Shown in pieces: positions 17,671 to 64,000 of a DNA stretch of 64,000 nucleotides. The DNA comes from Candidatus Bathyarchaeia archaeon (GTDB lineage Archaea > Thermoproteota > Bathyarchaeia > 40CM-2-53-6). The notes beneath the pieces were generated by a model that searched no databases, was not told the origin of the DNA, and saw only the letters and a list, made by a program, of their open reading frames with translations. How positions within the stretch are numbered: position 1 is the stretch's first letter; each line of letters opens with the position of its first letter. A program made the position numbers and the translations under genes. The stretch lies in the NCBI GenBank assembly GCA_049517415.1, contig JBEKSC010000009.1, forward strand, positions 1 to 64,000, in the 5' to 3' direction.

Positions 17671-17671
17671 T

Positions 17672-48421: not shown

Positions 48422-48643
48422 ATGCTGAGGCGAAGCGGGCCTGGTACGTGTGAAGTCTGCGAGAGGAAACCTGCAACAAGGAAAGCGAAGTTTACTGCAC
48501 AATCTCTTCAATCTACTTCTATGCCTTTGTTTGACGAGGAGTCGCTCGTTGCAGGGGAATTTGAGAAGAGGGTATGTGAAGAATGCCTAACCTTCTTGCA
48601 GAACGCGAAGAACGTAACGGACCTCACCTTCGAACGATTGTGA
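48422..48643 (+). CDS. Small Zn-finger protein
   Basis: CEVC..CEEC. Confidence 0.6.
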   Translation: MLRRSGPGTCEVCERKPATRKAKFTAQSLQSTSMPLFDEESLVAGEFEKRVCEECLTFLQNAKNVTDLTFERL

Positions 48644-48755
48644 GCAAGTTTAACTCAACCTCGGACGTCGTGTTCGACAACCACTGAGAAAGAATTCTCG
48701 CTCATCCGGTCTGCGCGGAAGGGTTAAAGGTTTGAGTCAGAACGTGTAAGCAAGT

Positions 48756-48871
48756 GGGCCGGTAGTTCAGCCTGGTATGCCAAGTGTTCGCTGGGCCAAA
48801 GAACGTCCGGTTTGCAAGTTCTTCACCAAGCTTCCGGAAGGTCGCGGGTCCGAATCCCGCCCGGTCCACCA
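48756..48871 (+). tRNA. tRNA-Ala(TGC) with introns at 21/22 (48779-48800) and 37/38 (48817-48832)
   Basis: GGGCCGG/CCGGTCC with G3:U70, encoded CCA, BHB helices TGGT/GCCA and TTTG/CAAG. Confidence 0.93.
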
Positions 48872-49075
48872 ATTTTAAGCCTTGCTTTTCCCGAGTTCTG
48901 ACCGTTTCTTGCCCGAACGGTTCGGATTTGGGCCAGTTGGTTTTTCGGTGCTACGAGATTTCCTAATGGGTAGAAGCCCGCATAATTCTTTGATTCCAGT
49001 CCCGAGGAGCCAATTATCATCATTCAAATGTCTCAAGCAGTAAATCTACTACTGCAAAATCAATTTAACAAGTTG

Positions 49076-50335
49076 CTATGAATCCAACTTCGTCCTTGCA
49101 ATTGTACTATTAATGCTCTTTCTCGTCGTATCCCATCCAAACTTACGCAGCATCAAAAGGAATACGTTCAGACGCGTTCCATCGGGAGATAACTTCTCGT
49201 AGGAACCGCCATCTTTCGATGGAAAACCTCTAACGATGAGACTGGCCAGGTGGGCCGGTTCCAAGGGAATTAGTCCAAGTCTGTTAGATTCCTTACTGTC
49301 CTCAGAAAAGGGCCAATTGGATTTGACGTCAGCGGAGGTCAGATGGGTGTCGTGATGAGCATGGACAGAGAATTCCAAATCATCATATTCTCCAGCAAAA
49401 GCCGCCATTTTTATCCTCTTTCTAGAGGCAGCTATTCCAAGCTCTTCTCTTAGACCGCGAACCGCCGCGGCCTCAAAGTCCTTATCAGCACCTCCTCGAT
49501 ATGAAATATCTCCATTCATAGATTCGTCAGTTGACATGCTCCACTTGTTACCGTAAAACTCTGTTCGAGCGGATCGACGTAAGAGTACAAGCTTCTTGTC
49601 CGAGGTGGTTACACTCACATGCACGCCTACCCCTCCACCAACGAAGATGTTTCGGTAAGATCGAACCTTATTCGACCGCTTGAGAACGTGATTCCTGAAG
49701 TTTACCGGCACCCCATTTACTTCGACATGGTCCGCTTCCAGTGCATTACGGATCGCGAGAATTACACTAAATTTAACGCGTCCCAATCTAATCTTCGGGG
49801 GATTCGAAGGATCGAAGGAATCAAGTATCGGAGGAGGGTCCATTCGGTCGACGTAGAGCTTATCGCGATCTGGGCTTGGTTTCCCGTCGAGGACACGCAT
49901 TCCGCCCTTAAATTTCACCATGCCCACCTCGTTCCGCTCACTGACTCTACCGTACTTGTCCGCAAGTTCATTCAGATTCGCCTCTGTAAGGCCAAATAAT
50001 TTTGCAAATCTCCTGCGTCCATTACCCGCGTCAATCGACTCATCGACCGCGACGTCATAATGGGGGGTCTTCTCATAGATGAAATGGCAGTCGGGGAAGA
50101 CTGCATGTTCATCAATCGCTATCGTGTCACTCCACTTGGATTCCGGAGCTTGTCGATTCAAGAACATCATTAAATCAGATGATGCCTGCAGGCGTGCCTT
50201 ACGCAAAAGCGAAACCAACTCCACATCTCCGGCAGACGAGCGGGTCAGAGGTTTGGATCCTCGCGTCCTCCTCTGTTCTCTAGGCCGATTGCTCCAAAAG
50301 CGTCTAAGGCCCTTCCAAGTAGAACTCAAAGGCAA
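49076..50335 (-). CDS. Protein with C-terminal divergent NUDIX-like domain
   Basis: GVHV.V.T.D.KLVLLRRS..W..S.DE..AAVRGLREELGI. Confidence 0.7.
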   Translation of the reverse strand: MPLSSTWKGLRRFWSNRPREQRRTRGSKPLTRSSAGDVELVSLLRKARLQASSDLMMFLNRQAPESKWSDTIAIDEHAVFPDCHFIYEKTPHYDVAVDESIDAGNGRRRFAKLFGLTEANLNELADKYGRVSERNEVGMVKFKGGMRVLDGKPSPDRDKLYVDRMDPPPILDSFDPSNPPKIRLGRVKFSVILAIRNALEADHVEVNGVPVNFRNHVLKRSNKVRSYRNIFVGGGVGVHVSVTTSDKKLVLLRRSARTEFYGNKWSMSTDESMNGDISYRGGADKDFEAAAVRGLREELGIAASRKRIKMAAFAGEYDDLEFSVHAHHDTHLTSADVKSNWPFSEDSKESNRLGLIPLEPAHLASLIVRGFPSKDGGSYEKLSPDGTRLNVFLLMLRKFGWDTTRKSINSTIARTKLDS

Positions 50336-50485
50336 TACGAGGCATCAATCTGAAAGAATCACCTTATTATGTTTGATTTTTCATCTCTCAGGATTGTTCC
50401 CTGTCTCACTGAGCTGAGCTATTGTTCTGCGCGAAAACGCGCAAGTTAAAGCTACATTGGCCGTTCACCTAGGTGGAAATCCATC

Positions 50486-50803
50486 TTGCCGAGACTAACC
50501 GAACGAGCCCTCTCACCAATCGTGAATGCCTCAAGGCCCGCCCTCCTTGCAGGGTTAAGCTTAACAGCCATCCAACTCGCGCAACGGAGCTTAGTACTAA
50601 GGTCTGCGCTTGTAGCCTCAACGATCTTCTACATGATAAGTTCAATCTCTTTATTCTTTTATGACGTGACACCGGAAGAGAGATCGCACAAACAAACGAC
50701 GTTCAAGTCTTGGCTAACATTTCTTTGGCATGCAGCCAGTGTGACTTTCTTCTTGGGTTTGTTGCTAACGGTAGTCTCCGCCTTTCTCCTAATTCTAGTA
50801 TAA
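50486..50803 (+). CDS. Small 3-TM membrane protein
   Basis: Three hydrophobic segments. Confidence 0.55.
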   Translation: MPRLTERALSPIVNASRPALLAGLSLTAIQLAQRSLVLRSALVASTIFYMISSISLFFYDVTPEERSHKQTTFKSWLTFLWHAASVTFFLGLLLTVVSAFLLILV

Positions 50804-50878
50804 CCGCTTTCCTCCTCAGATATGGGGTAATTCTAATTCAGCACTATCTTAGGTGATGAAGTAGTTGGGAACCGTAGA

Positions 50879-52714
50879 CTAGACGAAATCTGAGAGCTTG
50901 GTTGAATTCATTTTCAATTTAATGCGCATGGGTTCGAATGCTTGTGAGAGTGAGGCGTGTAGACTGAGGACGTAGTCATCGACGTCGATCTCGTTCGAGT
51001 TTGCTTGTGAGGTTGGTTTGACGGTGAATTGCCTTCCCTGTAACCTGAACGGGAGCACCTTCACAAATCCAATCGTGTCCCCACGATCGGGCCGCCTTCC
51101 CTGCCGCTCGAGCAGCCAAGCCGCTTGGTAGGGCTGCGCAAGTCTCTTCGACCGTACCTTCTCCGCTGGCTCTTCCCTAAGTTCAACTCGATATTCTAAG
51201 CCACCCAGACTCACGGATCTGCTACGAAGCCGGTGAGTCGCTTCGGCAACTATGTCGGTCAGCTGCTGTTTGGCAGTTTCGAATTCGGTGGGTGAGCGAC
51301 GTCCTTCGGCCAGTTGAGTTAGGCATTGTTGGAAGGTTTCCTGGAAGAATCGTGGTGAGTTGGATTTGGCGATGGCTAAACCTTTGATTTCTGGTTCTCC
51401 GTTGGGTAGGATACCGAAGTAGGCTTTGATAGTGCTGAGAACACAGACCGAATAGACGCGATCATAAGCCAATTGAAGTCTGAACTTGCTACCAACCTCT
51501 TGAATGAGCTTCCACGTCTCCTCCTCAGTTGGGTTGTCTAGGAATAGCGAATCCGTGTCGCTGTACTTCGGTCTGAGATCCATCCTCTTCGCCAAATCCC
51601 ATGTGGATTGAAGGACGTATCTTCCGTAAGCTGTGATCGCCTCGCCCAGAAGTGGACTGGCTAAGCCATGAATTCGAATTGTAACTCCGTAACAGGAGAC
51701 GAGAAATAGCTTCAAAATTCGCGATGCGGCCACAACGTTACCCTCCGTCTCATCTGCTGTTTTCGTCTGGGGTTTGTAGACCTGTAGACGCAGATCACGG
51801 AGAGCGCCTACGAGAACGGAGTAGATTCCGCGTCTTTTCGTGCAAACGTGTAACTGTGGTTGGCCGGGCACCCGGTTACTTCGACATTCTGGGTGGGGGC
51901 ATTGGATAGTCTCGTATGAGAGGTTGAATACGTCTATACAACCCGGGTAAAGAGATTCGAAATCCAGGACGTGCATGTTGAAGTAAGTACCCGGCTCCGG
52001 CCCGATTGCTAAGGCACCCGTTACCTGCTTTCTCGTGTCTCCGAGGTTGAGTTCTTCAGGGTTGGGAATGAGGATGTTATGGGAGCGGTAGTAGGTGTTG
52101 AGCATTGAACGTATCCAGTCGGAGACGGAATAGTTTCTGTATGTTCGGTTTATGGGGAGGTTCGCTAAGCGGCTGAGGAGAAAGGCATTATAGTAATCTT
52201 CCTCAGAGCCAACTCCACGGATATCGAGTTTCTCTTCAGGAATCTTGGGTACGGGCTGGCTGACGTAGGCGTATGCCTCCTGCAGCGAAGCATACTTGAG
52301 TCGGTCGCTTCGGCTGATTCTTCCGAACAATTTCTCAAAGCGAGAACCATCCTCGCCGCCTAAGGAGGCATCAGGAACCCAACCGTTTTCGCTGAAACGG
52401 TGAAGGATGCCGAACCGCAGTCCCTTATCATACGCGTAGCTGAGCGCCGGATCAATGTCCAGCTCCCAAGCTTTCGTGTCCTTCGAAGGTTTCCCTGTGT
52501 AGGTGACCTTGTTTAGTGTCAACTCGTTTCCCGTGAAGAGGTCAATTTTCTTGACGGGTTCGCCCTGTTTCTGTGTAGTGAGGTAGTATGGTTGAAAATC
52601 TCTTTCAATCCATTCAATCGATTCCAAGCCGGGCGATGTGATCAGCCTGAGAGTGACTAACCCCGTCTTGTAGGTGGCTCCTACAAGCCACGCAGATTGA
52701 CCCTCGGGAATCAA
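50879..52714 (-). CDS. Family B DNA polymerase (PolB1-derived) lacking the 3'-5' exonuclease domain
   Basis: DFESLYP, KLFLVSCYG, YSDTDS, NLSYET.CPH.EC, PIP-like TKLSDFV; only 611 aa. Confidence 0.9.
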   Translation of the reverse strand: MIPEGQSAWLVGATYKTGLVTLRLITSPGLESIEWIERDFQPYYLTTQKQGEPVKKIDLFTGNELTLNKVTYTGKPSKDTKAWELDIDPALSYAYDKGLRFGILHRFSENGWVPDASLGGEDGSRFEKLFGRISRSDRLKYASLQEAYAYVSQPVPKIPEEKLDIRGVGSEEDYYNAFLLSRLANLPINRTYRNYSVSDWIRSMLNTYYRSHNILIPNPEELNLGDTRKQVTGALAIGPEPGTYFNMHVLDFESLYPGCIDVFNLSYETIQCPHPECRSNRVPGQPQLHVCTKRRGIYSVLVGALRDLRLQVYKPQTKTADETEGNVVAASRILKLFLVSCYGVTIRIHGLASPLLGEAITAYGRYVLQSTWDLAKRMDLRPKYSDTDSLFLDNPTEEETWKLIQEVGSKFRLQLAYDRVYSVCVLSTIKAYFGILPNGEPEIKGLAIAKSNSPRFFQETFQQCLTQLAEGRRSPTEFETAKQQLTDIVAEATHRLRSRSVSLGGLEYRVELREEPAEKVRSKRLAQPYQAAWLLERQGRRPDRGDTIGFVKVLPFRLQGRQFTVKPTSQANSNEIDVDDYVLSLHASLSQAFEPMRIKLKMNSTKLSDFV

Positions 52715-52807
52715 GAGCGCACCTGGCTTCTAGTCTGACGAGTAATCGGTTCTCTTTAGGCTTGGAGGAAGCGACGTTCCACGCCGGAATAGTTGGAGAT
52801 TGTGACT

Positions 52808-53056
52808 TCAAAAGTCTGAGGGGAGGGATTCTTCATACGTTTCTACCATTAGGCCACCGCAATATCGGCCGCTTTCAGCTGTGAATACGATTGGAATTCT
52901 ATCGATGATCTTCTCGTTGGGGTGGTTCTTAATCCAATCCCGTATCTTCTGGTCGACTTCCAACCAGATGCGCCCGCAGATTATGACTCCAACTCGTTTC
53001 CTAGCCTTAGCTTGCATATTTTGACCATCAGAGCGAATGGGGTGAATTTTCGTCAA
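52808..53056 (-). CDS. Hypothetical protein
   Basis: Start overlaps the upstream stop. Confidence 0.45.
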   Translation of the reverse strand: MTKIHPIRSDGQNMQAKARKRVGVIICGRIWLEVDQKIRDWIKNHPNEKIIDRIPIVFTAESGRYCGGLMVETYEESLPSDF

Positions 53057-53580
53057 TCATATGGTCTGGGACCTCCGGCAAAAGCGCGCTGTCTTTCTCT
53101 CTTCCGCAAAATTGCCACATCGCGAGGCTCAGGTTTAGGGGGGACGGCTGCGGGTCTCTTGTAGCCGGCGCGTTGCACCTTCATGAGTTCATCGGCTGTG
53201 ATGAAACCTGTCTCCTGCTGCTTCCACTGTATCGCGCGCATTTCACCCATGTCAAAGTCCGGGAGCCGGACGCGGAACACAAGCTCATCTGCCCTTCCTT
53301 CAATTTCCAACCCCAAGAGATCATAGTCGTCTGAGAGGGACAGAAAGCGGCGAATTATCTTAACCCGGTCTGATGGCAAGGCAACTTCCTTGGATTCTAC
53401 CTCCGCTTGGTCGCACCATTGGCAGATCCACGTGACATTCCTTATCAGAACGCTAGGAACCTTGAGTTTCTCGGGAGTGGAGTAGCGGCAGCCGCAGGAA
53501 ATCTGTGGAGTTCTGGCCTTACAGGCTCTACACCATCGCTCCGTGCGGATAGTGTAGTTACTGCTTCCACTGAATGGCAT
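53053..53580 (-). CDS. Zn-ribbon hypothetical protein
   Basis: CRAC..CQWC; overlapping operon structure. Confidence 0.6.
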   Translation of the reverse strand: MPFSGSSNYTIRTERWCRACKARTPQISCGCRYSTPEKLKVPSVLIRNVTWICQWCDQAEVESKEVALPSDRVKIIRRFLSLSDDYDLLGLEIEGRADELVFRVRLPDFDMGEMRAIQWKQQETGFITADELMKVQRAGYKRPAAVPPKPEPRDVAILRKRERQRAFAGGPRPYD

Positions 53581-53959
53581 AGTAGTCTCTCATCTTAGGC
53601 TTAAGTTGCATAGGTTCCTCACTTCTCGGTACGAGTTCGCCGCTCTTCACCGAGTATCTTTCATGACACCACTCGCAGGTAAGAAAGACATCGAGTGGTC
53701 CACCACAATGAGGACAACGCCGGTTCCGGACCGTGTCGATTTCTGCCTGGTGCATAACGATGCGTTCGGCGACTGGGTCCGGCTCGGTCTTCAGCTCCTT
53801 TAGCCTGCCCTCTCTGAATCGAAACTCACGTTTGCATGAGTCGCAGCGGAAGCCCAACTCATCAACATCGCGGCCTTGAAGTAACCGCTTACTTCGGTTT
53901 ATCCAAACCAATGGCTTGTGGCAATCGAGGCAATCGGTCGAGTTAGAGTCAATTTCCAA
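53558..53959 (-). CDS. Double Zn-ribbon protein
   Basis: Four CxxC pairs. Confidence 0.65.
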   Translation of the reverse strand: MEIDSNSTDCLDCHKPLVWINRSKRLLQGRDVDELGFRCDSCKREFRFREGRLKELKTEPDPVAERIVMHQAEIDTVRNRRCPHCGGPLDVFLTCEWCHERYSVKSGELVPRSEEPMQLKPKMRDYYAIQWKQ

Positions 53960-54254
53960 ATATGTTGCAACTCAGCGCCGCAAATACAGTGGGTCGACCC
54001 GTAACGGCACAAGCTCATCATTCTCTAGTTCAAACCAGAGGTTGCATTGGTCACAACGTTTCAAGGGATAGTTCTCTTGGCCTAGAAGTTCAATTTGACA
54101 GGACGGACATTTCAAACCAGATCACAATATTTGCCGTAAACAATGCTACCGGATAAACTCAGAAATCACTGCAAGGCTAGGAGTCAGTGATTAATGAAAA
54201 TGAAATCGGGACTAACAGAGTGAAGGATGAAACTGTAAACTCTTTGCAGCATAG

Positions 54255-54464
54255 TCATTCTTGGCTCGTCTCCTTCTCCAAGAGCCTTAATCTCGCACGT
54301 CTGAACTGTTGTTCGTCCAGTTTGTTGAAATATTCTGTTAGCGCTTGTCTTATAGCCTCAGGCTTTGATCCAACAAATCCTTTCTGGATTATCTCGTCCA
54401 GTCGCCTAGCCAATTCACCCGTGAGATCGAAATCTATTCTTGTACTATAACGGTCGTTCTGCAT
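54255..54464 (-). CDS. Ribbon-helix-helix (CopG-like) regulator
   Basis: RIDFDL..LARRLD..G...SK.EAIRQAL. Confidence 0.8.
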   Translation of the reverse strand: MQNDRYSTRIDFDLTGELARRLDEIIQKGFVGSKPEAIRQALTEYFNKLDEQQFRRARLRLLEKETSQE

Positions 54465-54891
54465 TCTCTACCTTCTCCGCTCTTGACTCACTTCCGAGAT
54501 TCGCATTCTGCCCAGCGTCAGGCCGCGAAATTCTCTCATCGTCGCCTTGACCAACCGCTCGACTCTGAATCATGGCTTCCCTTAACACGTCCGGGAGGCC
54601 GGCCGCCTGTTCTAGTTTCGTCACATTGAAAATAACAACGTATTCTTTTCTGCAGTGTTTTGTCAGCCACATTATCCTTCCGTCATTGTAAATCTTCATG
54701 TCGTTGACAATAGTGATGGGAAGACCGCACCAGATGCAGAAGACTCCGGCTGTGCTGTGAAGCTGATACTCAATTCCTGCAGAGCTGAGTTGCTTCTCGA
54801 CCTCGCGTTGAGTGGTGAAGTCTTTCGGTGCTATCGAGATTATACATGCAGGGCTTTTGGTAGGTCTATAATGCAGATTCTGCATTCTCAA
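54445..54891 (-). CDS. Hypothetical protein (CxxC..HC)
   Basis: Overlapping operon gene. Confidence 0.55.
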   Translation of the reverse strand: MRMQNLHYRPTKSPACIISIAPKDFTTQREVEKQLSSAGIEYQLHSTAGVFCIWCGLPITIVNDMKIYNDGRIMWLTKHCRKEYVVIFNVTKLEQAAGLPDVLREAMIQSRAVGQGDDERISRPDAGQNANLGSESRAEKVENAERPL

Positions 54892-55204
54892 CTTTCTGCT
54901 CCTTTTGGTCTACGTTCGTCTCGAGTGGTGTGGCATCTAACTCAGCAAGAAGCAAATCGCCATCGCTTGCAGGGGGCTCGTACGCTTCGTGAAGCTCTGA
55001 TTCCATGACCGCCTCGGACAGTATTCGAGCCTCAAGTTCGCCCTTTTCAATTGAGCGTGACAACGCTTCTCTGAGATTCCACAATAGTTCTGAGTCTTGT
55101 CGTGTTCCCTCCCAATCTGCTCCTTCGAATTCGCGCAGTTCCATAGAATGTTCTTTCAGTTCATTCATGCGGTCGCTTCGTTCCAATGATTTGCCCGTGA
55201 CCAT
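54866..55204 (-). CDS. Acidic hypothetical protein
   Basis: Glu-rich; ends in DLLLAELD, similar to its neighbour. Confidence 0.55.
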   Translation of the reverse strand: MVTGKSLERSDRMNELKEHSMELREFEGADWEGTRQDSELLWNLREALSRSIEKGELEARILSEAVMESELHEAYEPPASDGDLLLAELDATPLETNVDQKEQKVENAESAL

Positions 55205-55206
55205 TA

Positions 55207-55815
55207 TTATTCCCTCACCGGTTCGGCCTCGATATTCCTCTCTGGCTGAACTTCAAGCTGGTTAGAGTCTAATTCGACAAGCAGAAGCTCTAGGTCAGCG
55301 ACAGGAACGTCATATAGTTCTGGACCTTTGTCGATGATGGCCTGTTGCGAGACTTCCACCAAGGGTTCAGTTAGATCAATTTCAGGTTCTTTCTGCTCGA
55401 TTGTGGCTGGCCCCGTTTCCACAAATCGATTCGCTTCGAGGCCTACCTCTTGCAAGTTAGGTGGAGTCTCCGAAACGAGGTCTGTCTCAGTCTGAGATTC
55501 TTGCTTCTGGTCTGAGTCATTGCGAAGATACTTCTCCATAGCACGCCCAACAGCCTTCTCCATCAAAGCTTGATCCGGCTCAGGGCGATAGAACGTAGGC
55601 TGACGATAGCTTTCGGTAGATGGCCTTTCGATAACTTCGTAACGGGTTTCCGTCTTTGGAAGTTTTGCAGGTGATTCTTTTTCGTATCTAAAATCATGCG
55701 TTCGGAAATAGTTCCTCGGCCCTCCGTAGCCGCCTCCTCCAAGATTCGGAATGTAGGGTCGTCTCTTTGTATCGGATCTCCCAACTCGTTTACGTTTCCG
55801 CCTATAGTCTCCCAT
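55207..55815 (-). CDS. Hypothetical protein with basic N-terminus and acidic C-terminus
   Basis: RRKRKR..; ELLLVELD; abuts the ATPase stop. Confidence 0.6.
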   Translation of the reverse strand: MGDYRRKRKRVGRSDTKRRPYIPNLGGGGYGGPRNYFRTHDFRYEKESPAKLPKTETRYEVIERPSTESYRQPTFYRPEPDQALMEKAVGRAMEKYLRNDSDQKQESQTETDLVSETPPNLQEVGLEANRFVETGPATIEQKEPEIDLTEPLVEVSQQAIIDKGPELYDVPVADLELLLVELDSNQLEVQPERNIEAEPVRE

Positions 55816-57921
55816 TCACTGCACCTTCATTCCAGAATCGTCATGATTCGGGTTTGTTCCGCTAAATGACCGCTGATGTCCGACGCCCGACTGGCTATTT
55901 CTAGTACTATTTTCACGTAGGAATTCGCTTATTTTCTGTACAGTTACTTTCTCGATTGCGGGACGGGCGTTCAGGAACATTACTCCGTCCCGCAGACTTT
56001 CATCATCTTTAACAAGTATGACTAGGCTGTCAAGCTCGTCTATTCCCTCAACTTTTTCCTCAATATTTGTGGTTGTTAATTCTATTTCTATTCCAGTCTT
56101 ACTCTTGCCGTCGTAACAGTAGACGTCAAGCCTTCTCCCAGAAGCCAGCTTCTTCTCTATCGTCGCTTCGTAGCCTTTCTTTCTAAAAGAATAGGCGATA
56201 AGCACCTGGTAGAGTGAATGCTCGAATCCGACATTCCCGATTTTCTTCCATAGGCTCGAGTCGTAGCCGAAATCTCTGAGAAGATTCAGAGCGTCATCCG
56301 TCGGAAGTAGGAACTTCACAGGCCTGAATCTTCCCAACGGAATCTCTAAACTCACGATTAGGTGTCGGTTGGCTAGTTCTTGGATTGCCGATTCGATTCT
56401 TCTGCCAGAGACTTTCAGAGCGTAGCATCTAGATCTGATGCCAAGAAATGGATGCTGGCAAACGTTTGCGAGTACGCCCCACGCGTCTGCAGTTAGCTGA
56501 CTCTTGATTAGCCTCGGTACTTGCTCTGCATTCTGTACGCGGCCAATTGCTTCCTTTCGCTCTTCAATTTCGAGTTCAGGGAGCAATTTCCGCAACCTCT
56601 CAGCGACCGCTTGGTCAGAAATGTGCTTGTCGACCGGATAGTCAGCGGTGACAATCATGAAAGGCTCAGTGTACTGATCCGAGAGTTTGACTAGCCATTC
56701 TCCTCGCTTGAGCTTGTGGATTACGTCTCGTTCGTCATCGTCGAGGCCCATTGCTTCGGAGATTGAATTGATGTCGGTTCCGTTTCCTAAGTTGCCTACT
56801 ATTTTAACCAAAGTGTTTGCGTGTACGGAATTTGTCATCTTGTTTGGTTCTTGCGACGTTAAGATCAAAGCTGTCCCGAAATCCCTGAACTGGGTGGGGA
56901 ATAGATTGATTGTCGGCATTCCCATTTCTCTTGTAGTGTCTCTCCATTCCTTGTTGGCATCCCAGATTCTGTGTGCTTCATCGCAGATTATCACCTGTCT
57001 CAGTTGTTCGCCGCGGTGTTGCTCTGTCATTCGATAGGCGTAGAGCCACGTTAGCATGACCTCAATGAGCCAATTCTGCTCTTCAGCCCTCAGCTGATCG
57101 AGTTCAAAGACTACAAAACGGTCCACAAGGTCTTCGAGTTTCAGGCCGCTATTCGAATTCAGTACGCTGCCAAGAATGCTGCCCAGTGTGCGAGTGCGAT
57201 TGTACATAACGTCGTAGTACTCAAGCCGCTTCCGACTTGTCTCCTGACTAGCAACCATCAACCTATGCAAGTCCCCAAGCGTTGGAAAAACGCTAGTCTT
57301 TTGGTAATCTTCGTACAGCTGGTCCAGGTACTCAAGAAGATAATTGATTCCAGCGTGATAGACTCCCCAAGCGTGGCCACAGACTTCTGAAAACAGTTGC
57401 CACCATAGTTTCACGTCCATTTTTGGTGGCGGTCTCAAAGGATTCCAGCGCAATTTCTGCCATGGAATGACTGCCAATTGCTCATGACGCAAGAGGAGAG
57501 CACGGCCGTCTTGCTTAACATCAAAGAACCAGAAGCCGACGTTGTTCTTGATCAACTGGTCCGTGAGATTGTAGAGTAGAACGGATTTCCCGTGGCCAGA
57601 CTGGGCAAAGATCCCGACGTGTCTACATAGGTCAGACCTTCGTAATGCAAATTTCCCAACACGTTTGTTCCCTTGGACTACTGTGCCAAACAGAATTTCA
57701 CCGTTGAACTCTGGAGGTACGGGCAGATAGGAATTTTCTGAATCAAGCAACAGCTGCAGCCCAGGCCCAAGAATTGTTTCAACGTCTTGCCTGATGCTTT
57801 GTTTGTCTTCTTCGCTATCCGTTATGACGTACAAGTCCAGCAGCGTCTTCAGACTATCAGCGTTGACATGTTGCGAGAGTTTCTCGATCGTTTCTTTTGT
57901 TTCCTCAACCCATTCATCCAA
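55816..57921 (-). CDS. HerA/VirB4/FtsK-like P-loop ATPase fused to wHTH and a PD-(D/E)XK-like domain
   Basis: RHVGIFAQSGHGKS, FFDVK, ICDEAH, R.FG..SQ; C-terminal H..IE..RLDV..GIEIE. Confidence 0.85.
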   Translation of the reverse strand: MDEWVEETKETIEKLSQHVNADSLKTLLDLYVITDSEEDKQSIRQDVETILGPGLQLLLDSENSYLPVPPEFNGEILFGTVVQGNKRVGKFALRRSDLCRHVGIFAQSGHGKSVLLYNLTDQLIKNNVGFWFFDVKQDGRALLLRHEQLAVIPWQKLRWNPLRPPPKMDVKLWWQLFSEVCGHAWGVYHAGINYLLEYLDQLYEDYQKTSVFPTLGDLHRLMVASQETSRKRLEYYDVMYNRTRTLGSILGSVLNSNSGLKLEDLVDRFVVFELDQLRAEEQNWLIEVMLTWLYAYRMTEQHRGEQLRQVIICDEAHRIWDANKEWRDTTREMGMPTINLFPTQFRDFGTALILTSQEPNKMTNSVHANTLVKIVGNLGNGTDINSISEAMGLDDDERDVIHKLKRGEWLVKLSDQYTEPFMIVTADYPVDKHISDQAVAERLRKLLPELEIEERKEAIGRVQNAEQVPRLIKSQLTADAWGVLANVCQHPFLGIRSRCYALKVSGRRIESAIQELANRHLIVSLEIPLGRFRPVKFLLPTDDALNLLRDFGYDSSLWKKIGNVGFEHSLYQVLIAYSFRKKGYEATIEKKLASGRRLDVYCYDGKSKTGIEIELTTTNIEEKVEGIDELDSLVILVKDDESLRDGVMFLNARPAIEKVTVQKISEFLRENSTRNSQSGVGHQRSFSGTNPNHDDSGMKVQ

Positions 57922-57927
57922 TCATAA

Positions 57928-58131
57928 TCACTCCTTCACGAATATCTTGCCGCCAAGAACAACGAAGACCAGCATCAGCACGCCGAAGACGATAATGTAA
58001 GCGGCGCTGGGCATTCCCCACTCACTGAGCTTTGCGTAAGCCCACGATAGAATGCCGTACCAGATGATGAGAATCGACGTCAAGATCAAGCCAGAGACGA
58101 AAGCTGTCTTAAGTTCCATCGTTGTCTTCAC
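57928..58131 (-). CDS. Small 2-TM membrane protein
   Basis: Hydrophobic; coupled to the ATPase. Confidence 0.6.
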   Translation of the reverse strand: MKTTMELKTAFVSGLILTSILIIWYGILSWAYAKLSEWGMPSAAYIIVFGVLMLVFVVLGGKIFVKE

Positions 58132-58678
58132 CAGTCTCTTCTTCCAGCCTGTTCTTCACGTCGGCCACATCTTCGTCTGCATCGAAAATCTTGGAGTAGA
58201 CTGAGAGGACTCTGATTCCGTCGCCGGTGATTTTTCTTGAAAGGAACGATAGCATTCCAGATTCTGTGATGTACTTTAATTCTCTAAGAACCGCCAGAGA
58301 ACTTTTCACATCGTCCTTATCCAGTCGACATATTTTGGATATTTGCGGAACCGATTCGATTTCATTGTTAATGCAAAGGAGAATTTTAAATCCGTGACGA
58401 GTGAGAGGCGCGACCAGCGCTAGATGTGGCCTGCAATAGGGCACTCCGTCCACCTTCGTGGAACATCCCGTACAAAGTTTTGATCCACACGTTCGACACA
58501 GAAGGAAGTTCTCCAGCGGATATTTACCGCAAAAGTCGCATGCCATCAAGAAGGTAGTTCGATTAATTTTTCCAGCATTAGTTTCTATCTTCTTGCCTCC
58601 GAGGAGACCACGGTTCTCGATCACTGCGTGTTCTTCGAATGACGTGTCAGACAAAATCATCATCCGCGCAGAATTCAT
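58109..58678 (-). CDS. B-box/Zn-finger plus winged-helix protein
   Basis: CDFC..CRTC..CTGC..CRPH then a wHTH-like segment (ITGDG). Confidence 0.7.
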   Translation of the reverse strand: MNSARMMILSDTSFEEHAVIENRGLLGGKKIETNAGKINRTTFLMACDFCGKYPLENFLLCRTCGSKLCTGCSTKVDGVPYCRPHLALVAPLTRHGFKILLCINNEIESVPQISKICRLDKDDVKSSLAVLRELKYITESGMLSFLSRKITGDGIRVLSVYSKIFDADEDVADVKNRLEEETGEDNDGT

Positions 58679-58796
58679 TTCGCCATCTTTGCAGAGTCCT
58701 TACGGCAAATACGACGACAAGTCCCATGAAAAGAAAGGGAAAGATGAGAAGAGCAAACATACCTAATGCAATTGCTACGAGCAGCTCTTTCTTCAA
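58647..58796 (-). CDS. 49-aa membrane peptide (not in ORF track)
   Basis: TTG start overlapping the upstream stop; MKKELLVAIALGMFALLIFPFLFMGLVVVFAV.. Confidence 0.5.
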   Translation of the reverse strand: MKKELLVAIALGMFALLIFPFLFMGLVVVFAVRTLQRWRNEFCADDDFV

Positions 58797-59077
58797 TCGA
58801 AATCATCCTCGAACCGTCTTTTGAAATTACTAGGCCGTTCAATGTGGACGATTCGCGTATGTGTCACTGTGTGTGTTCGTCGGGGCTCATGATAGTCCCA
58901 GTCTCCTGATTCCTCCATGAGCAGGCCAAGTATGGTAAGGCCGCCGACTCCTGTGATCATAATGAGAACCCAAATGGCTGCGTTGTAGCCGTTGACAAAG
59001 CCCAGCACTGCACCCCAAAGTATCACGAAAGCCATCGCAAAACCAAAAGTGATGGGGAGAGTTGGGAGGATTTCCAA
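58793..59077 (-). CDS. 2-TM membrane protein
   Basis: Two TM segments and a charged tail. Confidence 0.6.
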   Translation of the reverse strand: MEILPTLPITFGFAMAFVILWGAVLGFVNGYNAAIWVLIMITGVGGLTILGLLMEESGDWDYHEPRRTHTVTHTRIVHIERPSNFKRRFEDDFD

Positions 59078-59078
59078 T

Positions 59079-59234
59079 TTAGTAATCCTCCACTTTCCCG
59101 CTCGGGTAGTGCGTTAGCACCGTTGTCCGTTCAGTGACGTCGTGACTTGTGGGTTCGGATGGTATGTCGTCACCATCACTGAGGGCCTTCCCCAAACCCG
59201 CGCCGATTGCAGCTAGTATGATGAACCAGATCAA
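59079..59234 (-). CDS. 51-aa membrane peptide (not in ORF track)
   Basis: GGAGGTGA SD, TTG start, MIWFIILAAIGAGLGKALSD.. Confidence 0.55.
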   Translation of the reverse strand: MIWFIILAAIGAGLGKALSDGDDIPSEPTSHDVTERTTVLTHYPSGKVEDY

Positions 59235-59439
59235 ACAATCACCTCCTCAACAGTACGCAAGGACCTCGCGTACGTAGTCTTCTGTTTCCCTGTAGCTTTT
59301 GGAATAGCTGCCGTAGAGTTTGTAGTCCCATCGTTCGCGGATGATAACAGTGCAGACGTGTTGATCGAGTTTGTCTCCGAACAGCTGTCTCCAAGCGATC
59401 TCATTATGAGAGTTGGCAAGCAACGCAGGCAGGCATGCT

Positions 59440-60270
59440 ATGACCGTACCAGGATTTCCCAAGGCCCTGTGTCAGGTTACACTCTCAGGCCTTGATTATG
59501 AACGGATAGAATACTCAATCAATAGGTTACCCTGTTACAAAATATGGATTGTTGAAAACGATGCAAGCATAGCCAAGGCCGACAAAGCGCTAATCGTCGA
59601 AATTCATAACGATCTCGAAAGAAGACTGCGAAATCGATTTCAAAAAAACCTGCAGTTTTGTCAAGTGAACTTCCAAAATCCGAGAGAGGCAACACTTGGA
59701 ATGTATGCGGTCATTTTGCGAGAACAAAGAAGAGGCTTCGATGTCTTTGTGAATATAAGCACCGGAACCAAGCCGATGGCAGTCGCAGCAACAGTCGCCG
59801 CGGCCCTTGCGGGGTGCAGTGTGGTTTACTTCCGGGCCAAGGAATACTCGCGCCTCAAAGACAAGGACGAAGTTGTTGCCAAAGGGGTCAAGGCTGACCC
59901 ATCTCCAATAGAAATACCGATATTTCATCTGCTCAGACCTGCCACGCAAATGAGAGAAGAGAGACTTGAGGTCTTAACCGAGCTTGTCAGGGTTGGTAAA
60001 ATCTCGAATGTAAAGGACTTGACGCTAAACAGAAAAAGGAATCTAAGAGGCGCAAGTTTGGACGCTGAACACGCAAGACTGTTGTATCACCTGCACGAAC
60101 TTGAGAAGGACGCATTGGTGAAAGTCGAACGACAAATAGAAAGTAAATCAAACGGGAAGCCGACAAAATTGAAGGAGGAGACTAAGCCGACCGATCTGGG
60201 CAAGTTTATTGTGGAACTCAAGCGAATAGAGAACGAAGTAAATCGGGAACCTGTCCCGAATCCAGACTAG
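59440..60270 (+). CDS. CARF (DUF6293/Csa3-like) plus wHTH transcriptional regulator
   Basis: VFVNISTGTK..A..AA..Y..A.EY; C-terminal YHL.ELEK.LV..TDLGK. Confidence 0.75.
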   Translation: MTVPGFPKALCQVTLSGLDYERIEYSINRLPCYKIWIVENDASIAKADKALIVEIHNDLERRLRNRFQKNLQFCQVNFQNPREATLGMYAVILREQRRGFDVFVNISTGTKPMAVAATVAAALAGCSVVYFRAKEYSRLKDKDEVVAKGVKADPSPIEIPIFHLLRPATQMREERLEVLTELVRVGKISNVKDLTLNRKRNLRGASLDAEHARLLYHLHELEKDALVKVERQIESKSNGKPTKLKEETKPTDLGKFIVELKRIENEVNREPVPNPD

Positions 60271-60333
60271 CTCAATGACTTCAGATTACGTTCTCGGAAA
60301 AATGGAAGAAGGGAGCGGTATGCTCCCAGCTTC

Positions 60334-60690
60334 TTACAAAGTCACGACTTGAATTCCGTCTACGAGTTTTCCTGCGAAGTTCTTCTTCACGACGATCAGG
60401 CTAATCTGCTTACCCGTCCATAGATCAGTGTCGTCTCCATATTTCTCTGCGATTATCTTGCTGTTCGTGCTGTTCAACGCAAGCTGCTTGGAGGTCTCGT
60501 TAAAGGAAAGAACGACCTTGTTCCTTGCATCTTCTCCTTGACCTAACTTCTTGACTTCTGCGGTCCTTATCGTTAGCATTGTGTTGTTGAGGTTCTCCGA
60601 AACAATATTCGTGGAGTTGAGATAGTTCCAGTTATCTCCAGCGTATGCGTTCTCTTCGTATTGACGATATACTTCCATTACATTGGCCAT
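60334..60690 (-). CDS. Virus-type OB-fold-like protein (possible ssDNA-binding)
   Basis: K.VL.F..K.L.LN.TN..I...YGDDTD.W.GK.I.L.....F.G..VDGI pattern, recalled from phage proteins. Confidence 0.55.
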   Translation of the reverse strand: MANVMEVYRQYEENAYAGDNWNYLNSTNIVSENLNNTMLTIRTAEVKKLGQGEDARNKVVLSFNETSKQLALNSTNSKIIAEKYGDDTDLWTGKQISLIVVKKNFAGKLVDGIQVVTL

Positions 60691-60744
60691 GTTTTCACAC
60701 TCCTTGGGCTCTGTTTGCTTTGACCCATCAGAACCCATACCAAC

Positions 60745-60927
60745 TCAGCAAGCCCTCTTGCTGAAGCTGTCTATCGGCCTCACTTTCTTCAGCGTCTTCT
60801 TGTCTCGAAGCAACGATGATAATTTCGCGTTAAGTTCCTTCCTTAGTATCGACCGTTGCTCTTCCAAGTCCCTAATCTGTATCTGAATCTCTATTATCTC
60901 GTCTTGAAGTCTCTGTAGTTTGCTCAT
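60745..60927 (-). CDS. Short coiled-coil protein
   Basis: Heptad pattern. Confidence 0.5.
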   Translation of the reverse strand: MSKLQRLQDEIIEIQIQIRDLEEQRSILRKELNAKLSSLLRDKKTLKKVRPIDSFSKRAC

Positions 60928-61455
60928 CGTCTCACATCCTCTCGAGTTAATAACGGGAGGCGAGTCTTCTTCGTTTCAGCGAAGCGTGGTCGAAGACCGA
61001 AAGGAAGAAAGAACGAGCCGACTCCGCGGATCGGGATTCTGTTTTGAATTGCGCTTTGCCCGTCAGAATATAGGTCCGATGGAATTCATGCGACAAAACT
61101 CATCAATGTTCTCGAAACCACACATTACATCATAGAAATCAATAAGCAAACATGTTCACAGAATTATCAACATCTCTCTAACTCCACGCGATGAAGGACG
61201 AAAGCCCTGAGCGCCTTCACATATTTTCCTACAAACCTGAAAAGTGAGACTTCGTTCTGCCAAGTGAGGAGATCGCATAAATGGCATTACACGCCCTCCG
61301 AACCTTTTGCAATCTGGCAGCATCTTCCGACAAAGACGGCTAAAGGAAGTATTTGACCCCCACTTCGCTCAGCAAGGCAGAATCATGCGACCAGCCCGAA
61401 TTGTAGTCTTAAGTTGTCTTCTCAGCTATGGATTGCGGACAGCGAGCAAAGTGAG

Positions 61456-61926
61456 TTAAGAAATATGCTCAGCTGGCGCAGATTCATTATAGAACAATCC
61501 GAAAATACTCAAGACCATCGGCCCTCGTAATTCATTTTTCGCGAGAAACATTTCCCAGTGCTTCTCAGGCTCATACTTGGGGTCGGGTTCTGTGTGAGGC
61601 CAGCTGACTATCTTGCCCAAGTATCGGCAGAGGTCTACGTGAAGGCGGAGAACAACTTCATCGCCCCAGCGGGACAGCGGAACTCGGTATTCAGGAAAAT
61701 TATGTGGAAACCCGACCGGTTTCGCCGTCGTTGGACCCTTGTGCGTGGGATTTTGCAGGATCGCTGTCGTATTCCATTCGAGGGCTTCGTAGGTTTTTCT
61801 GATGTCAGGTAGTCGAGTCAGTCGATGAATGAATATCTCATCAGACCGCAGATCAGACCTCTCTGGAAGGTTGTCCCAGCCAATCGTTCGAGGCTGAATC
61901 TCTTGTTGCCCAACTTCTCCAGCCAA
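61456..61926 (-). CDS. Hypothetical protein
   Basis: 156-aa ORF, GGAG upstream. Confidence 0.5.
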   Translation of the reverse strand: MAGEVGQQEIQPRTIGWDNLPERSDLRSDEIFIHRLTRLPDIRKTYEALEWNTTAILQNPTHKGPTTAKPVGFPHNFPEYRVPLSRWGDEVVLRLHVDLCRYLGKIVSWPHTEPDPKYEPEKHWEMFLAKNELRGPMVLSIFGLFYNESAPAEHIS

Positions 61927-61994
61927 TCCTGCTCCTCGAAGGGTTTTCGCATTGCCTTGAAATAAGGTTTCGACGTTCCACTCGTTTCATTTTG

Positions 61995-62026
61995 TATACC
62001 GGACGATTAGTCATCTATACCGGACG
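61995..62026. promoter_or_regulatory. Direct repeat TATACCGGACG x2 at 21-bp spacing in a divergent promoter
   Basis: 61995-62005 and 62016-62026; TATAAG box at ~62049. Confidence 0.55.
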
Positions 62027-62076
62027 GGTGCGGGCACAATGGCTCAACTATAAGCGCTCTCGAAACCAAATAATGA

Positions 62077-62721
62077 ATGATGGCATTTTGGAATCGATGG
62101 TTCAGAAAAGAAGAATCGAAAGTTGAAACGACACAACCTGTTGCAAGTGACCGGGAGCTGGTCATGCAATGGGTTCAGAGCGTCAATGATTCACTCATAG
62201 GTATCGGAGAAGAACTGAGAAAGGTGCCTTCTGAAACGGCGGCCATCTACAATCAGAGTCTCGAAAACAGCAACCGAGACGTTCTAAGAAAGTTGGACGA
62301 GCTGCCTGATAAGATAACAGGGCCCTTGAAGGAGATGATCGCCATCTCGAAGCAGGAAATCTTGGCCGAACTAGTTCGCATCAGTTCGCACTATAATGCG
62401 CATCATTCGCATGATTCGGATAGTGCGCAGATTCTAAAACCCGTTCAAGAGATAACGAATGGTTTGACGGGTAAGCAAAGGAAGCTTCTGGCTATACTCC
62501 TGGGTTCAGGGTTCCTCTCATACGCTGAGATCGGAGAGAAGCTTGGAATAACCCACGAATCAGCAAAGAATCTTGTGAATAGGCTTCTAAAGGACAAAGA
62601 GAAGGCGAGGCTATTCTCAAAACAGGAGACCGATAGAGGCGTTATAGTGGGTGTGTCGAGCGAAGCTCAGGATGAGATATTAGAGAAAAAGTACCGAACT
62701 ACAGCGAACGATTCGACATGA
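62077..62721 (+). CDS. Coiled-coil plus C-terminal HTH protein
   Basis: LTGKQRKLL..LSYAEIGEKLGITHESAKNLVNRL. Confidence 0.75.
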   Translation: MMAFWNRWFRKEESKVETTQPVASDRELVMQWVQSVNDSLIGIGEELRKVPSETAAIYNQSLENSNRDVLRKLDELPDKITGPLKEMIAISKQEILAELVRISSHYNAHHSHDSDSAQILKPVQEITNGLTGKQRKLLAILLGSGFLSYAEIGEKLGITHESAKNLVNRLLKDKEKARLFSKQETDRGVIVGVSSEAQDEILEKKYRTTANDST

Positions 62722-62746
62722 TTCGACGAATGATTCGAACGATTCG
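62710..62746 (+). repeat. Four GATTCG hexamers over the HTH gene stop
   Basis: 62710, 62720, 62732, 62741. Confidence 0.6.
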
Positions 62747-62887
62747 CACGATGCGGATAATTCGGCAGCGATTACTTTTGGACGTCTGAGGCTCATTGTT
62801 ATTTATTGCCTTACGTGGCCGCTGAACAAGACCACCAGAAGATTCGTAAAGAACTTCCATCTCAGTGAATCCCCCTTGGTTAAGGGC

Positions 62888-64000
62888 ATGTCATCTGAGA
62901 CTGAACTTGCTGCAGTTACTGAGTCCCCTTCATCAGTAAATCGAACTATTGCAATTGTTAAAACGAATAAAGACTTGCTGCACAGATTCGTGTCATACGG
63001 TGAGTTTCTAGGAATCATCGTAGACGTATTCTACGATCTCGGTCACAGTCGAAAGAGAATAGCGATAAAGAATCTAGTAAAACGCAACTCTAGCGAGACC
63101 GTTGAGCCGGTGAGAGATGCCCCGTCTCCTGATCTCAATGTTAATCTCGCTTCGGCTGTTGACCTGAGGAAGTTTTTCCCAACAAAGCCTTTTCCGAATC
63201 ATGGATACATTGGCACTGTAAGGGGCACAGATTATCCGGTTCCCATTGACCTAGAAAAACTCTGCTACCGAAATGCAGCAGTACTTGCTGGCACTGGTCA
63301 CGGAAAATCGACGTTAGCTGCACTTCTCGCTTGCGAGCTATATGCATCCGGAAAGAGAATTGTTGTAATCGACCCTACTGGCGAGTGGAAACGAATTGTG
63401 AGGCAACTTGCTCCATCTCTCAGCATTCCCGAGGGCAGCATAAAGTGCGATGTAATCCCCCCTATAGGAGACAATGATACACTTCTCTACGAGACGTCCA
63501 GAAGAATTCTAATCGCTGCCCTCAGACCAAATAGTGATTTGTTTGAGATTGTTGATGTCTCATTTCCGGACTGGATTGGTTCAATCCTTGCCAAGAAGAA
63601 GAAACAACGCATGATGGCATGGCGTATTGAGGAGGATCTGATTAGCCAGGCATCATCACATTTCGCGGAAACAGAAAAGACGTATGACTTCAAAACGTGC
63701 GTCATTCTTGAGGAGGCGCATGATTTTGTTCCGGCGAAACCGATGCACGATGACCAAGAGGCACTCACTGAAACGTTCGCGGTAGCAACCAAAGAGTTCA
63801 GGAAGCATGGTCTCGGACACATCTTTATCGACCAAAGCCTAAGAACAATTTCACCGGAATTGCAAATCCAAACATTCCTATTTGGGTCAACTAATGCCCC
63901 TGCAGACCTACTTTTTCTGAGAAAACAGCTTGGGGAGGACATTGCTTCAGCGATACAGCGCACAAGTGCCACATTGACGAGAACATGGGTTGCTTTTGGA
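62888..64000 (+). CDS. HerA-like ATPase (partial, runs off the window; not in ORF track)
   Basis: Manual translation from ATG 62888: RNAAVLAGTGHGKS, VIDPTGEW, ILEEAHDFVP, EFRKHGLG..DQ. Confidence 0.85.
   Translation, partial: MSSETELAAVTESPSSVNRTIAIVKTNKDLLHRFVSYGEFLGIIVDVFYDLGHSRKRIAIKNLVKRNSSETVEPVRDAPSPDLNVNLASAVDLRKFFPTKPFPNHGYIGTVRGTDYPVPIDLEKLCYRNAAVLAGTGHGKSTLAALLACELYASGKRIVVIDPTGEWKRIVRQLAPSLSIPEGSIKCDVIPPIGDNDTLLYETSRRILIAALRPNSDLFEIVDVSFPDWIGSILAKKKKQRMMAWRIEEDLISQASSHFAETEKTYDFKTCVILEEAHDFVPAKPMHDDQEALTETFAVATKEFRKHGLGHIFIDQSLRTISPELQIQTFLFGSTNAPADLLFLRKQLGEDIASAIQRTSATLTRTWVAFG

Follow-up and report, generated by a model that had tools for sequence, protein, structure and literature searches.

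The DNA studied here is a 64,000-nucleotide (nt) window, positions 1 to 64000 of contig C9 (85,156 nt in total), from a Bathyarchaeia genome of 59 contigs and 2.65 Mb (G000). Its subject is an island of foreign DNA, inserted and well bounded at a tRNA-Ala gene, which carries a family-B DNA polymerase (PolB) lacking an exonuclease domain ("exo-less") together with an ATPase operon, and which reaches beyond the window onto a second contig, C49. Forty genomes served as relatives, 22 of them congeners and 18 from outside the genus, and the ATPase was surveyed in 59 metagenome loci, of which L052 and L056 represent the window's own population. Below, G numbers denote genomes and L numbers denote loci; unnamed gene products of the island are given as g plus a number, and protein clusters from the ATPase loci are given as fam plus a number. 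Positions of features are collected in Table 1.

TABLE 1 Features of the island and its insertion site (contig C9 coordinates)
Feature	Position	Strand	Evidence or remark
tRNA-Ala(UGC), two introns	48756-48871	+	Rfam, 46.3 bits; 3'-end pattern unique; 100% identical tRNA in G014
Left end of element A, noncoding	48872-48989		Shared with G001, G002, L054, and L055
NUDIX419, 419 amino acids (aa), weak degenerate NUDIX (cargo slot)	49076-50335	-	PF00293, E 1e-4
Exo-less PolB1-like DNA polymerase, 611 aa, cargo	50879-52714	-	Pfam PF00136, PolB1 models
p82, p175, and Zn133, small Cys-rich zinc-ribbon proteins of the PolB operon	52808-53959	-	Zn133-p175-PolB kept in 4 of 9 PolB loci
Ribbon-helix-helix protein (RHH; CopG-type), last gene of the ATPase operon	54255-54464	-	84-94% aa identity in L054 and L055
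g148, g112, and g202, variable genes that follow the ATPase	54445-55815	-	Slot holds fam 6, 17, 42, or 125 in relatives
701-aa HerA/VirB4/DndH-like ATPase with winged helix-turn-helix (wHTH) and restriction-endonuclease-like domain	55816-57921	-	Pfam, model
g67 (two-transmembrane peptide) and g189 (Zn ribbon plus wHTH), invariant ATPase partners	57928-58678	-	Locus survey
g55, g94 (two transmembrane segments), g51 (one), and g62, operon head	58675-59419	-	ThiF/E1(-JAB) at this place in most relatives
CARF-domain (Csa3-like) regulator	59413-60270	+	HFX_2341_N, E 6e-12
g134 and g60, backbone gene pair	60334-60927	-	87% nt identity in L054, 79% in L074
wHTH214, backbone regulator	62077-62721	+	66-87% aa identity in five other loci
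HerA407, HerA-like ATPase, 407 aa	62876-64100 (past window edge)	+	Pfam, NCBIfam

Read outward from the tRNA, the island begins with NUDIX419 and the PolB operon, followed by the ATPase operon, the CARF regulator, the g134/g60 pair, g156, wHTH214, and HerA407 with g416, a 416-aa protein that has an Rx4H motif at its end and that, by our own reading, may be HEPN-like. Further out come g127/g115, a ParB-methyltransferase, a second methyltransferase, g314 (secreted or membrane), g126 (three transmembrane segments), HerA449, a DUF6338 protein, a YgjP-like peptidase, a type I restriction-modification (R-M) system (hsdR, hsdS, and hsdM) with an inserted PIN gene, a HEPN gene, g140, and lastly g536, which has wHTH domains and a C-terminal D..ECK motif. 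A sequence-only reading of this DNA had described two coupled minus-strand operons, a CARF regulator, and a HerA gene, and all of these were borne out; the two packed gene strings run from 59419 to 54255 and from 53959 to 50879, with overlaps of 4 to 26 nt. The NUDIX-like gene of that reading stands only weakly (Pfam score of 22.7 bits versus a cutoff of 21.1; no PHROG, NCBIfam, or PADLOC match). Its small membrane peptides stand in part, as transmembrane segments are present in g51, g94, and g67 and absent from g62 and g55. Two further calls were not upheld: the supposed virus-like OB-type open reading frame (ORF), g134, matches only a PHROG of unknown function, and the repeat sites ascribed to an HTH protein come down to one 24-nt two-copy repeat with 75% identity. 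In line with that reading, Pfam and PHROGs scans of the island ORFs gave no gene for a capsid, terminase, MCM, primase, or relaxase and none for Cas1. No paralogues of the island's backbone genes (defined below) were found elsewhere in G000.

The gene at the insertion site was located by applying Rfam to positions 48600 to 49100, which gave a tRNA at 48756-48868 (E 8e-9) that is interrupted by two introns, seen as insertions of 29 and 18 nt. With UUUGC in its anticodon loop and, as read, G3:U70 in its acceptor stem, the gene is identified as tRNA-Ala(UGC). This tRNA was reported neither by ARAGORN on the window nor by Rfam on the whole window; ARAGORN overlooks intron-bearing tRNAs here, and its blanks for the window and for eight PolB loci carry no information. 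The CCA ends at 48871, and the 23-nt tRNA 3' end is present once in the window (48849-48871). When the tRNA and its left flank were compared with the 40 relatives, long matches were obtained in G014 (90%), G004, G018, and G021. Translated comparison of C9 with 20-kb stretches of G014, G018, and G004 revealed unbroken synteny from 36.0 to 48.87 kb that stops at 48871/48872, which confirms the earlier claim that housekeeping genes end at the CCA of the tRNA; past this point, no credible match to the three stretches was found.

The far boundary was found on C49. In G014, G018, and G004, the DNA behind the tRNA consists of homologues of the part of C49 that starts at about 3.5 kb and reaches the contig end (3.5-8.8 kb), followed by homologues of C19, and the same arrangement is present in G021. 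The terminal 116 nt of C9 are identical to C49:6-121, an overlap composed of a 42-nt tandem repeat and unique sequence. The repeat is present in at least three copies (C9:85007-85132 and C49:14-97) and is the site of the assembly break. The left attachment site (attL) consists of the last 25 nt of the tRNA, 48848-48872; the right attachment site (attR), C49:3458-3482, agrees with it in 23 of 25 nt, and what follows attR corresponds to the sequence next to the tRNA in G014 and G004. With the contig overlap taken at face value, the island spans C9:48872 to C49:3482, or 39,646 nt. The end that had been placed at 64000 is merely the window edge, and the insertion continues for another 24.6 kb.

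Nine congener tRNA-Ala loci were compared. Four are empty (G014, G004, G018, and G021), two carry the island's first ~117 nt (G001 and G002), and three hold other DNA (G017, G011, and G006). The check for an empty site that the sequence-only reading had called for thus gave a positive answer, and the finding that could have told against an insertion, namely, lineage-wide synteny of these genes next to the tRNA with no att duplication, was not obtained. The attL junction is also present in assembled contigs of 20 sequencing runs from 19 studies of peat, wetland, and soil (nine possibly the source); these contigs break at the tRNA, with loose ends at 48872/3 and 48988.

The island has two parts. 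An exact copy of the last 13 nt of the tRNA, at C9:84716-84728, divides it into element A (C9:48872-84728; 35,857 nt) and segment B (3,789 nt), which lies between this internal copy and attR. The 13-nt copy had been considered as the sole attR and was dropped from that role once the C49 attR was found. In G017, a stretch that lies 29.5 kb downstream of the tRNA-Ala has 85% identity to the 375 nt ahead of this copy. It, too, terminates in a tRNA-type end, GCCCGAGGCTCCA, the same as the 3' end of the tRNA next to the L055 element; because of this match and its tRNA-type end, 84346-84728 was treated as a real element terminus. Element A has a GC content of 47.9%, versus 50.1% for the genome; among 262 windows of 36 kb across the genome, only 1.2% fall this low. 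Segment B encodes an SDR protein and a pyridoxal phosphate (PLP)-dependent threonine-dehydratase-like enzyme, and the best relatives of the PLP enzyme in five congeners are 48-50% identical paralogues sited elsewhere. Segment B would be a separate and probably older acquisition. At the opposite end, the 117-nt noncoding left end of element A is conserved: the five left ends (G000, G001, G002, L054, and L055) have a mean column identity of 86%, contain a near-invariant 36-nt block, and diverge fully right after C9:48989. Contigs in metagenome run X14 also diverge at 48988.

L054 and L055 are the closest counterparts of element A. Both have the tRNA, the 117-nt left end (91% and 81% nt identity, respectively), a 449- to 482-aa gene, the RHH gene, and the ATPase operon. 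L054 continues with g134/g60 and wHTH214 (87-89% nt identity); its tRNA has a GGC anticodon region like that of the C1 tRNA of G000, with the last 19 nt in common. Family members at tRNA-Ala-type genes number three. We consider it probable that element A belongs to a family of Bathyarchaeia integrative elements, directed at tRNA 3' ends, that has so far gone undescribed and that it is a composite island with cargo. What appears to be new is the family, as defined by its backbone, and the polymerase family; the class of element is known. In a separate G017 locus (C3:96160-96852; L038), a g140 homologue (86-90% aa identity) adjoins a g60 homologue (87%). The corresponding genes are 22 kb apart in G000, and the adjacency in L038 suggests that the G000 defense genes may have been inserted between backbone genes.

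Next, a recombinase was sought. A six-frame search of the whole genome with PF00589 returned eight matches; at E<=1, the region 48.9-85.2 kb had none. In 79 of 100 further stop-to-stop frames of at least 70 aa and in four C49 genes, no family of recombinases or transposases was detected; the 21 frames outside that scan are alternate-frame ORFs inside the type I R-M genes. Cas1 (PF01867), searched in six frames over the whole genome, gave four matches (on C3, on C8, and at C9:17654-17893), none in the island or C49. For terminal inverted repeats, the ends of element A and segment B were compared in all pairings and gave only chance matches of 7 to 9 nt. Individual candidates were also rejected. 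g536, considered as an integrase, has no Pfam, PHROG, or NCBIfam match and no PDB sequence match, and its Atlas similarity to Mrr-type nucleases (0.86-0.87) is a lead only; as a split SSV-type integrase it would have only 12 open codons upstream of the ATG at the computed circle junction. Nothing in the sequences of NUDIX419, g416, and g314 fits a recombinase. The search past 64 kb that had been advised for an integrase and a repeat of the tRNA end therefore recovered the att copies and no integrase.

An integrase is present in a more distant relative. L074 is a 509-kb contig that carries g134/g60 and the g189-g67-ATPase trio (47%); at its end, a 401-aa tyrosine recombinase (PF00589, E 2.8e-24) is separated by 66 nt from the 3' end of a tRNA that contains an intron (Rfam, 53 bits), and then come ordinary host genes. 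Contig C2 of G000 encodes an integrase that is 58% identical to that of L074. An element with an ordinary tyrosine integrase beside a tRNA is of a known kind, and the undescribed class of element that had been proposed for this locus is not supported.

In the explanation that we favor, C9:48872-C49:3482 would be a composite island of ~39.6 kb in the 3' end of tRNA-Ala(UGC). Its backbone would comprise the 117-nt left end, RHH, the g189/g67/ATPase operon, g134/g60, wHTH214, g127/g115, g140, and, at the right end, g536. A first cargo, NUDIX419 with the PolB operon, would occupy a variable slot beside the left end, and a second cargo, of defense genes, would consist of HerA407 with g416, the ParB-methylase, the second methylase, HerA449, the type I R-M system with PIN, and HEPN. 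Integration would most likely have occurred via a tyrosine recombinase as in L074, and the G000 copy, without a recombinase and with a decayed attR, is probably fixed in place. Overall, the locus is an integrase-less member of an undescribed element family with defense cargo and an accessory exo-less polymerase; it is no new self-replicating class.

To characterize the backbone operon, its 701-aa ATPase was examined by alignment and modeling. About 80 full-length relatives share 37-88% identity with it, and the residues invariant in the alignment are G109 and K112 of Walker A, D314-E315, H568, E589, R597, D599, and E612. Pfam gives a DUF87 match, and Walker A and B motifs and a HerA-type fold are present. 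The AlphaFold model (predicted local distance difference test [pLDDT] score of 83) is nearest to the DndH C-domain (7es4; E 1e-16, TMt 0.74); versus HerA (4d2i) and VirB4 (4ag5; TMt 0.72), TMt is 0.70-0.72. The VirB4 fold is as close as HerA, and there is also a partial CedD match (E 1.5e-13). Folding of the last 247 residues together with 35 homologues (pLDDT 82) gave two parts. The first is a MarR-type wHTH (VIA-align Z 11.5; root mean square deviation [rmsd] 2.2; 78 aligned residues), and the second resembles AF1548/1y88 (Z 11.3; rmsd 3.0; 105 aligned residues), which we take to have a restriction-endonuclease-like fold. Foldseek searches with the C terminus alone gave no match at E<=0.001 and only marginal ones to Can2, VC1899, and EcoT38I. 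The description of this gene as an ATPase-nuclease thus agrees with the models.

Among the 40 relatives, the ATPase is present only in G002 (88%) and G017 (27%), and G002 contig C88 holds the entire operon at 81% nt identity. No relative of the ATPase was found in IMG/VR viral contigs, and PADLOC matched no known system as a whole. Beside the ATPase, only peptides with one or two transmembrane segments are present, and no relaxase or VirB6 family was detected in the ORF scans.

Across the 59 metagenome loci, blastp placed g189 beside the ATPase in 42, g67 in 14, RHH69 and g140 (61-73% identity) in 8 each, wHTH214 in 7, g134/g60 and g127 in 4 each, and g536 in 3 (49-54% identity). For g67/g189, protein clustering gave fam 0 in 47 of 58 loci and fam 2 in 41 of 58. 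The usual order in relatives, by clustering, is fam27-fam27-fam8-g189-g67-ATPase-fam6-RHH, where fam 8 is ThiF/E1, once fused to JAB. In most relatives (L059, L061, L083, L070, and others), the module is preceded by ThiF/E1(-JAB) and two small fam 27 proteins, a pairing which suggests that a ubiquitin-like (Ubl) conjugation step may be linked to the ATPase-nuclease. A ParM-like gene lies beside the module in L083 and L104, and Cap15/SMODS genes lie near it in L070. A more ambitious proposal is that the g189-g67-ATPase-wHTH-nuclease trio constitutes a new archaeal DNA-handling machine or a new Ubl-linked defense system and that the exo-less PolB with its zinc-ribbon partners constitutes a new accessory polymerase system of Bathyarchaeia. 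We regard this proposal as speculative and quite doubtful. If true, the trio would either drive the transfer or maintenance of tRNA-targeting elements that have no integrase of their own or act as an element-borne, Ubl-linked defense.

Several points weigh against the composite-element explanation. No recombinase of any kind was found in the island by the six-frame PF00589 search or the Pfam ORF scans; in L054 and L055, the closest relatives at tRNA-Ala genes, the left end likewise shows no integrase. The tRNA beside L074 is not the same one, and the ATPase there has only 47% identity. The C9-C49 join depends on the 116-nt overlap, which includes the 42-nt tandem repeat, without a spanning contig. 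The 13-nt copy by itself is not significant, as the same search gave a second, chance 13-mer on C9, and the GC content of segment B (51.3%) is host-like. Finally, the backbone genes might merely be common small genes of variable regions.

The last point leads to the alternative that fares best, that a defense island was built up piece by piece at a tRNA hot spot, without one underlying mobile element and with small genes that are common residents of variable regions. The gene content is what such an island would hold (three HerA-like ATPases, a type I R-M system with PIN, two methylases, HEPN, CARF, and an Mrr-like nuclease), its modules are distributed independently among congeners, and the missing recombinase is in keeping with it, as is the conflict-system style in which the ATPase module stands beside ThiF/E1-JAB in most relatives and near Cap15/SMODS in L070. 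However, L054 and L055 keep the target, the 117-nt end, and the order RHH-ATPase operon-g134/g60-wHTH214; the right terminus is conserved in G017 at 85% nt identity; element A is lower in GC as a block; and ParM-like genes (L083 and L104) or an integrase (L074) occur beside the module. Piecemeal growth is therefore judged unlikely, and the composite integrative element is retained as the preferred explanation.

The polymerase bears on a second alternative, and its exo-less, host-PolB1-like character, noted in the sequence-only reading, was confirmed. PolB residues 178-601 are nearest to Saccharolobus Dpo1/PolB1 (1s5j; E 3e-56, with PolB 178-593 aligned to chain residues 398-819) and match NCBIfam PolB1 model NF004417; the PolB1 model gives E 1e-91, versus E 6e-15 for NF004416. 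Both catalytic motifs, A (DFESLYPG) and C (YSDTDS), are preserved. As read from the sequence, the exonuclease region is replaced by ~50 aa after a remnant of the N-terminal domain. The host PolB1, on C8, is 37% identical. The PolB family has more than 120 clusters with 60-86% identity and lengths of ~610 aa, and clustering at 50% leaves six full-length representatives of 614 to 656 aa. A gap in E values from 1e-105 to 1e-73 parts this short family from PolB1 proteins of 800 to 900 aa, which match only from residue ~178. p175 was considered as a detached exonuclease, as in Kunpengvirus (PMC10848311), and rejected; it is a zinc-ribbon protein instead, as is Zn133.

Full-length PolB is present in 7 of the 22 congeners and in none of the 18 genomes outside the genus; G012 and G013 add broken copies, and the empty-site genomes lack it. 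A scan of genome contigs gave only nine loci with PolB, the same set as in the congeners. Zn133-p175-PolB is kept in four of the nine and is the only unit common to them; the other neighbors vary (TIR, NACHT-like, HD-CE, Fic, TBP, EMG1, PolX, and metabolic genes), and within 8 kb on either side no other island gene was found. L054 and L055 have the same tRNA-Ala target, left end, RHH, and ATPase operon without PolB, and in G002, PolB and the ATPase operon are on different contigs with differing contexts. PolB thus forms a discrete accessory family whose genomic contexts are unrelated; this and the PolB-free elements of L054 and L055 are why it is assigned to cargo. The 5.2-kb stretch of NUDIX419 and the PolB operon is likewise assigned to a variable slot because L054 and L055 hold another gene there. 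PolB is probably an active, non-proofreading accessory polymerase. As a separate observation, G013 has two copies (L043 and L051) of an ~8-kb segment with TIR and NACHT-like genes and Zn133-p175-PolB, in one of which PolB is broken into four pieces. In the literature on Bathyarchaeota B-family polymerases and exonuclease, no account of the polymerase family or of the ATPase module was found, which is not proof of absence.

These data also address whether the locus is one self-replicating integrative element of a new class, with the exo-less PolB as its replicase and the ATPase-nuclease operon handling DNA. The intact polymerase motifs would suit a replicase, PolB is patchy and sometimes multicopy or decayed in the manner of mobile genes, and no known mobile-element hallmark accounts for the island. 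Against this, the nine PolB loci share nothing else of the island over the intervals compared, L054 and L055 retain the backbone without PolB, and G002 has the two modules apart. The first proposal, in which PolB, the ATPase operon, CARF, and HerA belong to a single element, is thus contradicted by the congeners, and the suggested neighborhood survey with the ATPase and PolB as anchors showed that the two do not travel as one unit. PolB is not the element's replicase, and on present comparisons the self-replicating explanation is already largely refuted and very improbable.

Least credible of all, to the point of being negligible, is a casposon-derived nonautonomous element mobilized by a casposase in trans with the 13-nt repeat as its target-site duplication, for which the direct repeat of the tRNA 3' end, the 410- to 416-aa open frames of the Cas1 genes on C3 and C8 of G000, and the Cas1 and polymerase genes at the G017 tRNA-Ala could be cited, since the ends of A and B lack terminal inverted repeats, the island lacks Cas1, attR comprises 25 nt of tRNA homology, and element A measures 35.9 kb versus the 7 to 20 kb given for casposons in the excerpted account of Makarova et al. 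(2014; PMC4104785). The G017 insert itself (C4; L041/L042) lies at a tRNA-Ala at 969069: a Cas1 gene (270 aa, E 7.5e-52) starts 198 nt past the tRNA, a protein-primed-type PolB (PF03175) follows 11.7 kb in, and an IS240-type transposase gene lies between them. This insert is casposon-like and has the same target site as the island.

The composite island was then compared with known systems. The casposons outlined in the excerpt of PMC4104785 have Cas1, inverted repeats at their termini, and duplications of the target site; the island resembles them in its tRNA 3'-end target, short duplication, and PolB and differs in having no Cas1, no terminal inverted repeats, about twice the maximum size, and another PolB type. 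The same excerpt describes two tyrosine-recombinase elements bearing PolB, IgnAgg-E3 and ArcSul-E1, which share no genes with each other. Like these, the island combines tRNA 3'-end insertion, a direct repeat, a length of tens of kilobases, and a family-B polymerase, and the related L074 has an integrase; the island is set apart by having no integrase and by its PolB being exo-less cargo. Of the features of tyrosine-recombinase elements, tRNA 3'-end insertion, direct repeats, and an empty site were found, and an element integrase was not. The island fits the tRNA-integrating kind, save for the missing integrase.

The polymerase half of PolB is like PolB1/Dpo1; unlike PolB1, PolB has no exonuclease domain. 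The hallmark of pipolins is a primer-independent PolB (piPolB). Judged by database matches, with no direct comparison to a piPolB reference sequence, the island PolB is not of this kind; it best matches PolB1/Dpo1 and Pfam PF00136, not PF03175. Like Dpo2, it is a short, non-proofreading, extra B-family polymerase. PolB2 is described in the excerpted PMC4104785 text as mostly inactivated and linked to RadA-like genes and arCOG07300, whereas the motifs of the island PolB are intact, its operon partners are zinc-ribbon proteins, and no neighbor of either of those kinds is present. PMC10848311 treats Bathyarchaeia viruses with capsid genes, one of which, Kunpengvirus, splits the exonuclease and PolB genes.

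The ATPase resembles those of HerA/DndH/VirB4 defense systems (SIR2-HerA, DUF4297-HerA, and DndFGH) in its fold and in its pairing with a nuclease-type effector. Here, however, the ATPase chain itself carries the nuclease-like domain and a wHTH, and the constant partners are a Zn-ribbon wHTH protein and a two-transmembrane peptide. With conjugation systems of the type IV secretion or Ced-like kind it shares the VirB4-type fold; a relaxase or VirB6 family was not found in the ORF scans. A HerA-like ATPase linked to a Ubl gene in Sulfolobales, as reported in the excerpt of PMC2948915, belongs to another family and another context.

Bathyarchaeia are abundant and uncultured, and their nonviral mobile elements have barely been charted. 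The locus has boundaries fixed to the nucleotide and a known empty site, and with the conserved genes and ends of its backbone further members of the family can be sought. Because its polymerase without proofreading is cargo rather than the engine, the locus also warns against declaring a new self-replicating class. The exo-less PolB1-like family, with its six full-length clusters at 50% identity, and the ATPase module with its E1/JAB pairing are each worth experiments of their own.

Three other observations were made in the part of the window before the island. Between a tRNA at 47177-47289 and the tRNA-Ala lies a 314-aa ORF (47297-48241, minus strand) with two LAGLIDADG-like motifs as read and no Pfam or NCBIfam match; G014, G018, and G004 lack it here, their two tRNAs being ~1.1 kb closer, and it is possibly a free-standing homing endonuclease insertion. 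At 17612-19643, a C-terminal Cas1 fragment (201 aa; PF01867, E 1e-12) is followed by a 351-aa ORF with a subthreshold tyrosine-recombinase match (24.3 bits versus a cutoff of 27.1), perhaps a remnant of another mobile element. A thiamine pyrophosphate riboswitch (40466-40580; Rfam, 70.9 bits) is present in this archaeal genome upstream of the syntenic core region.

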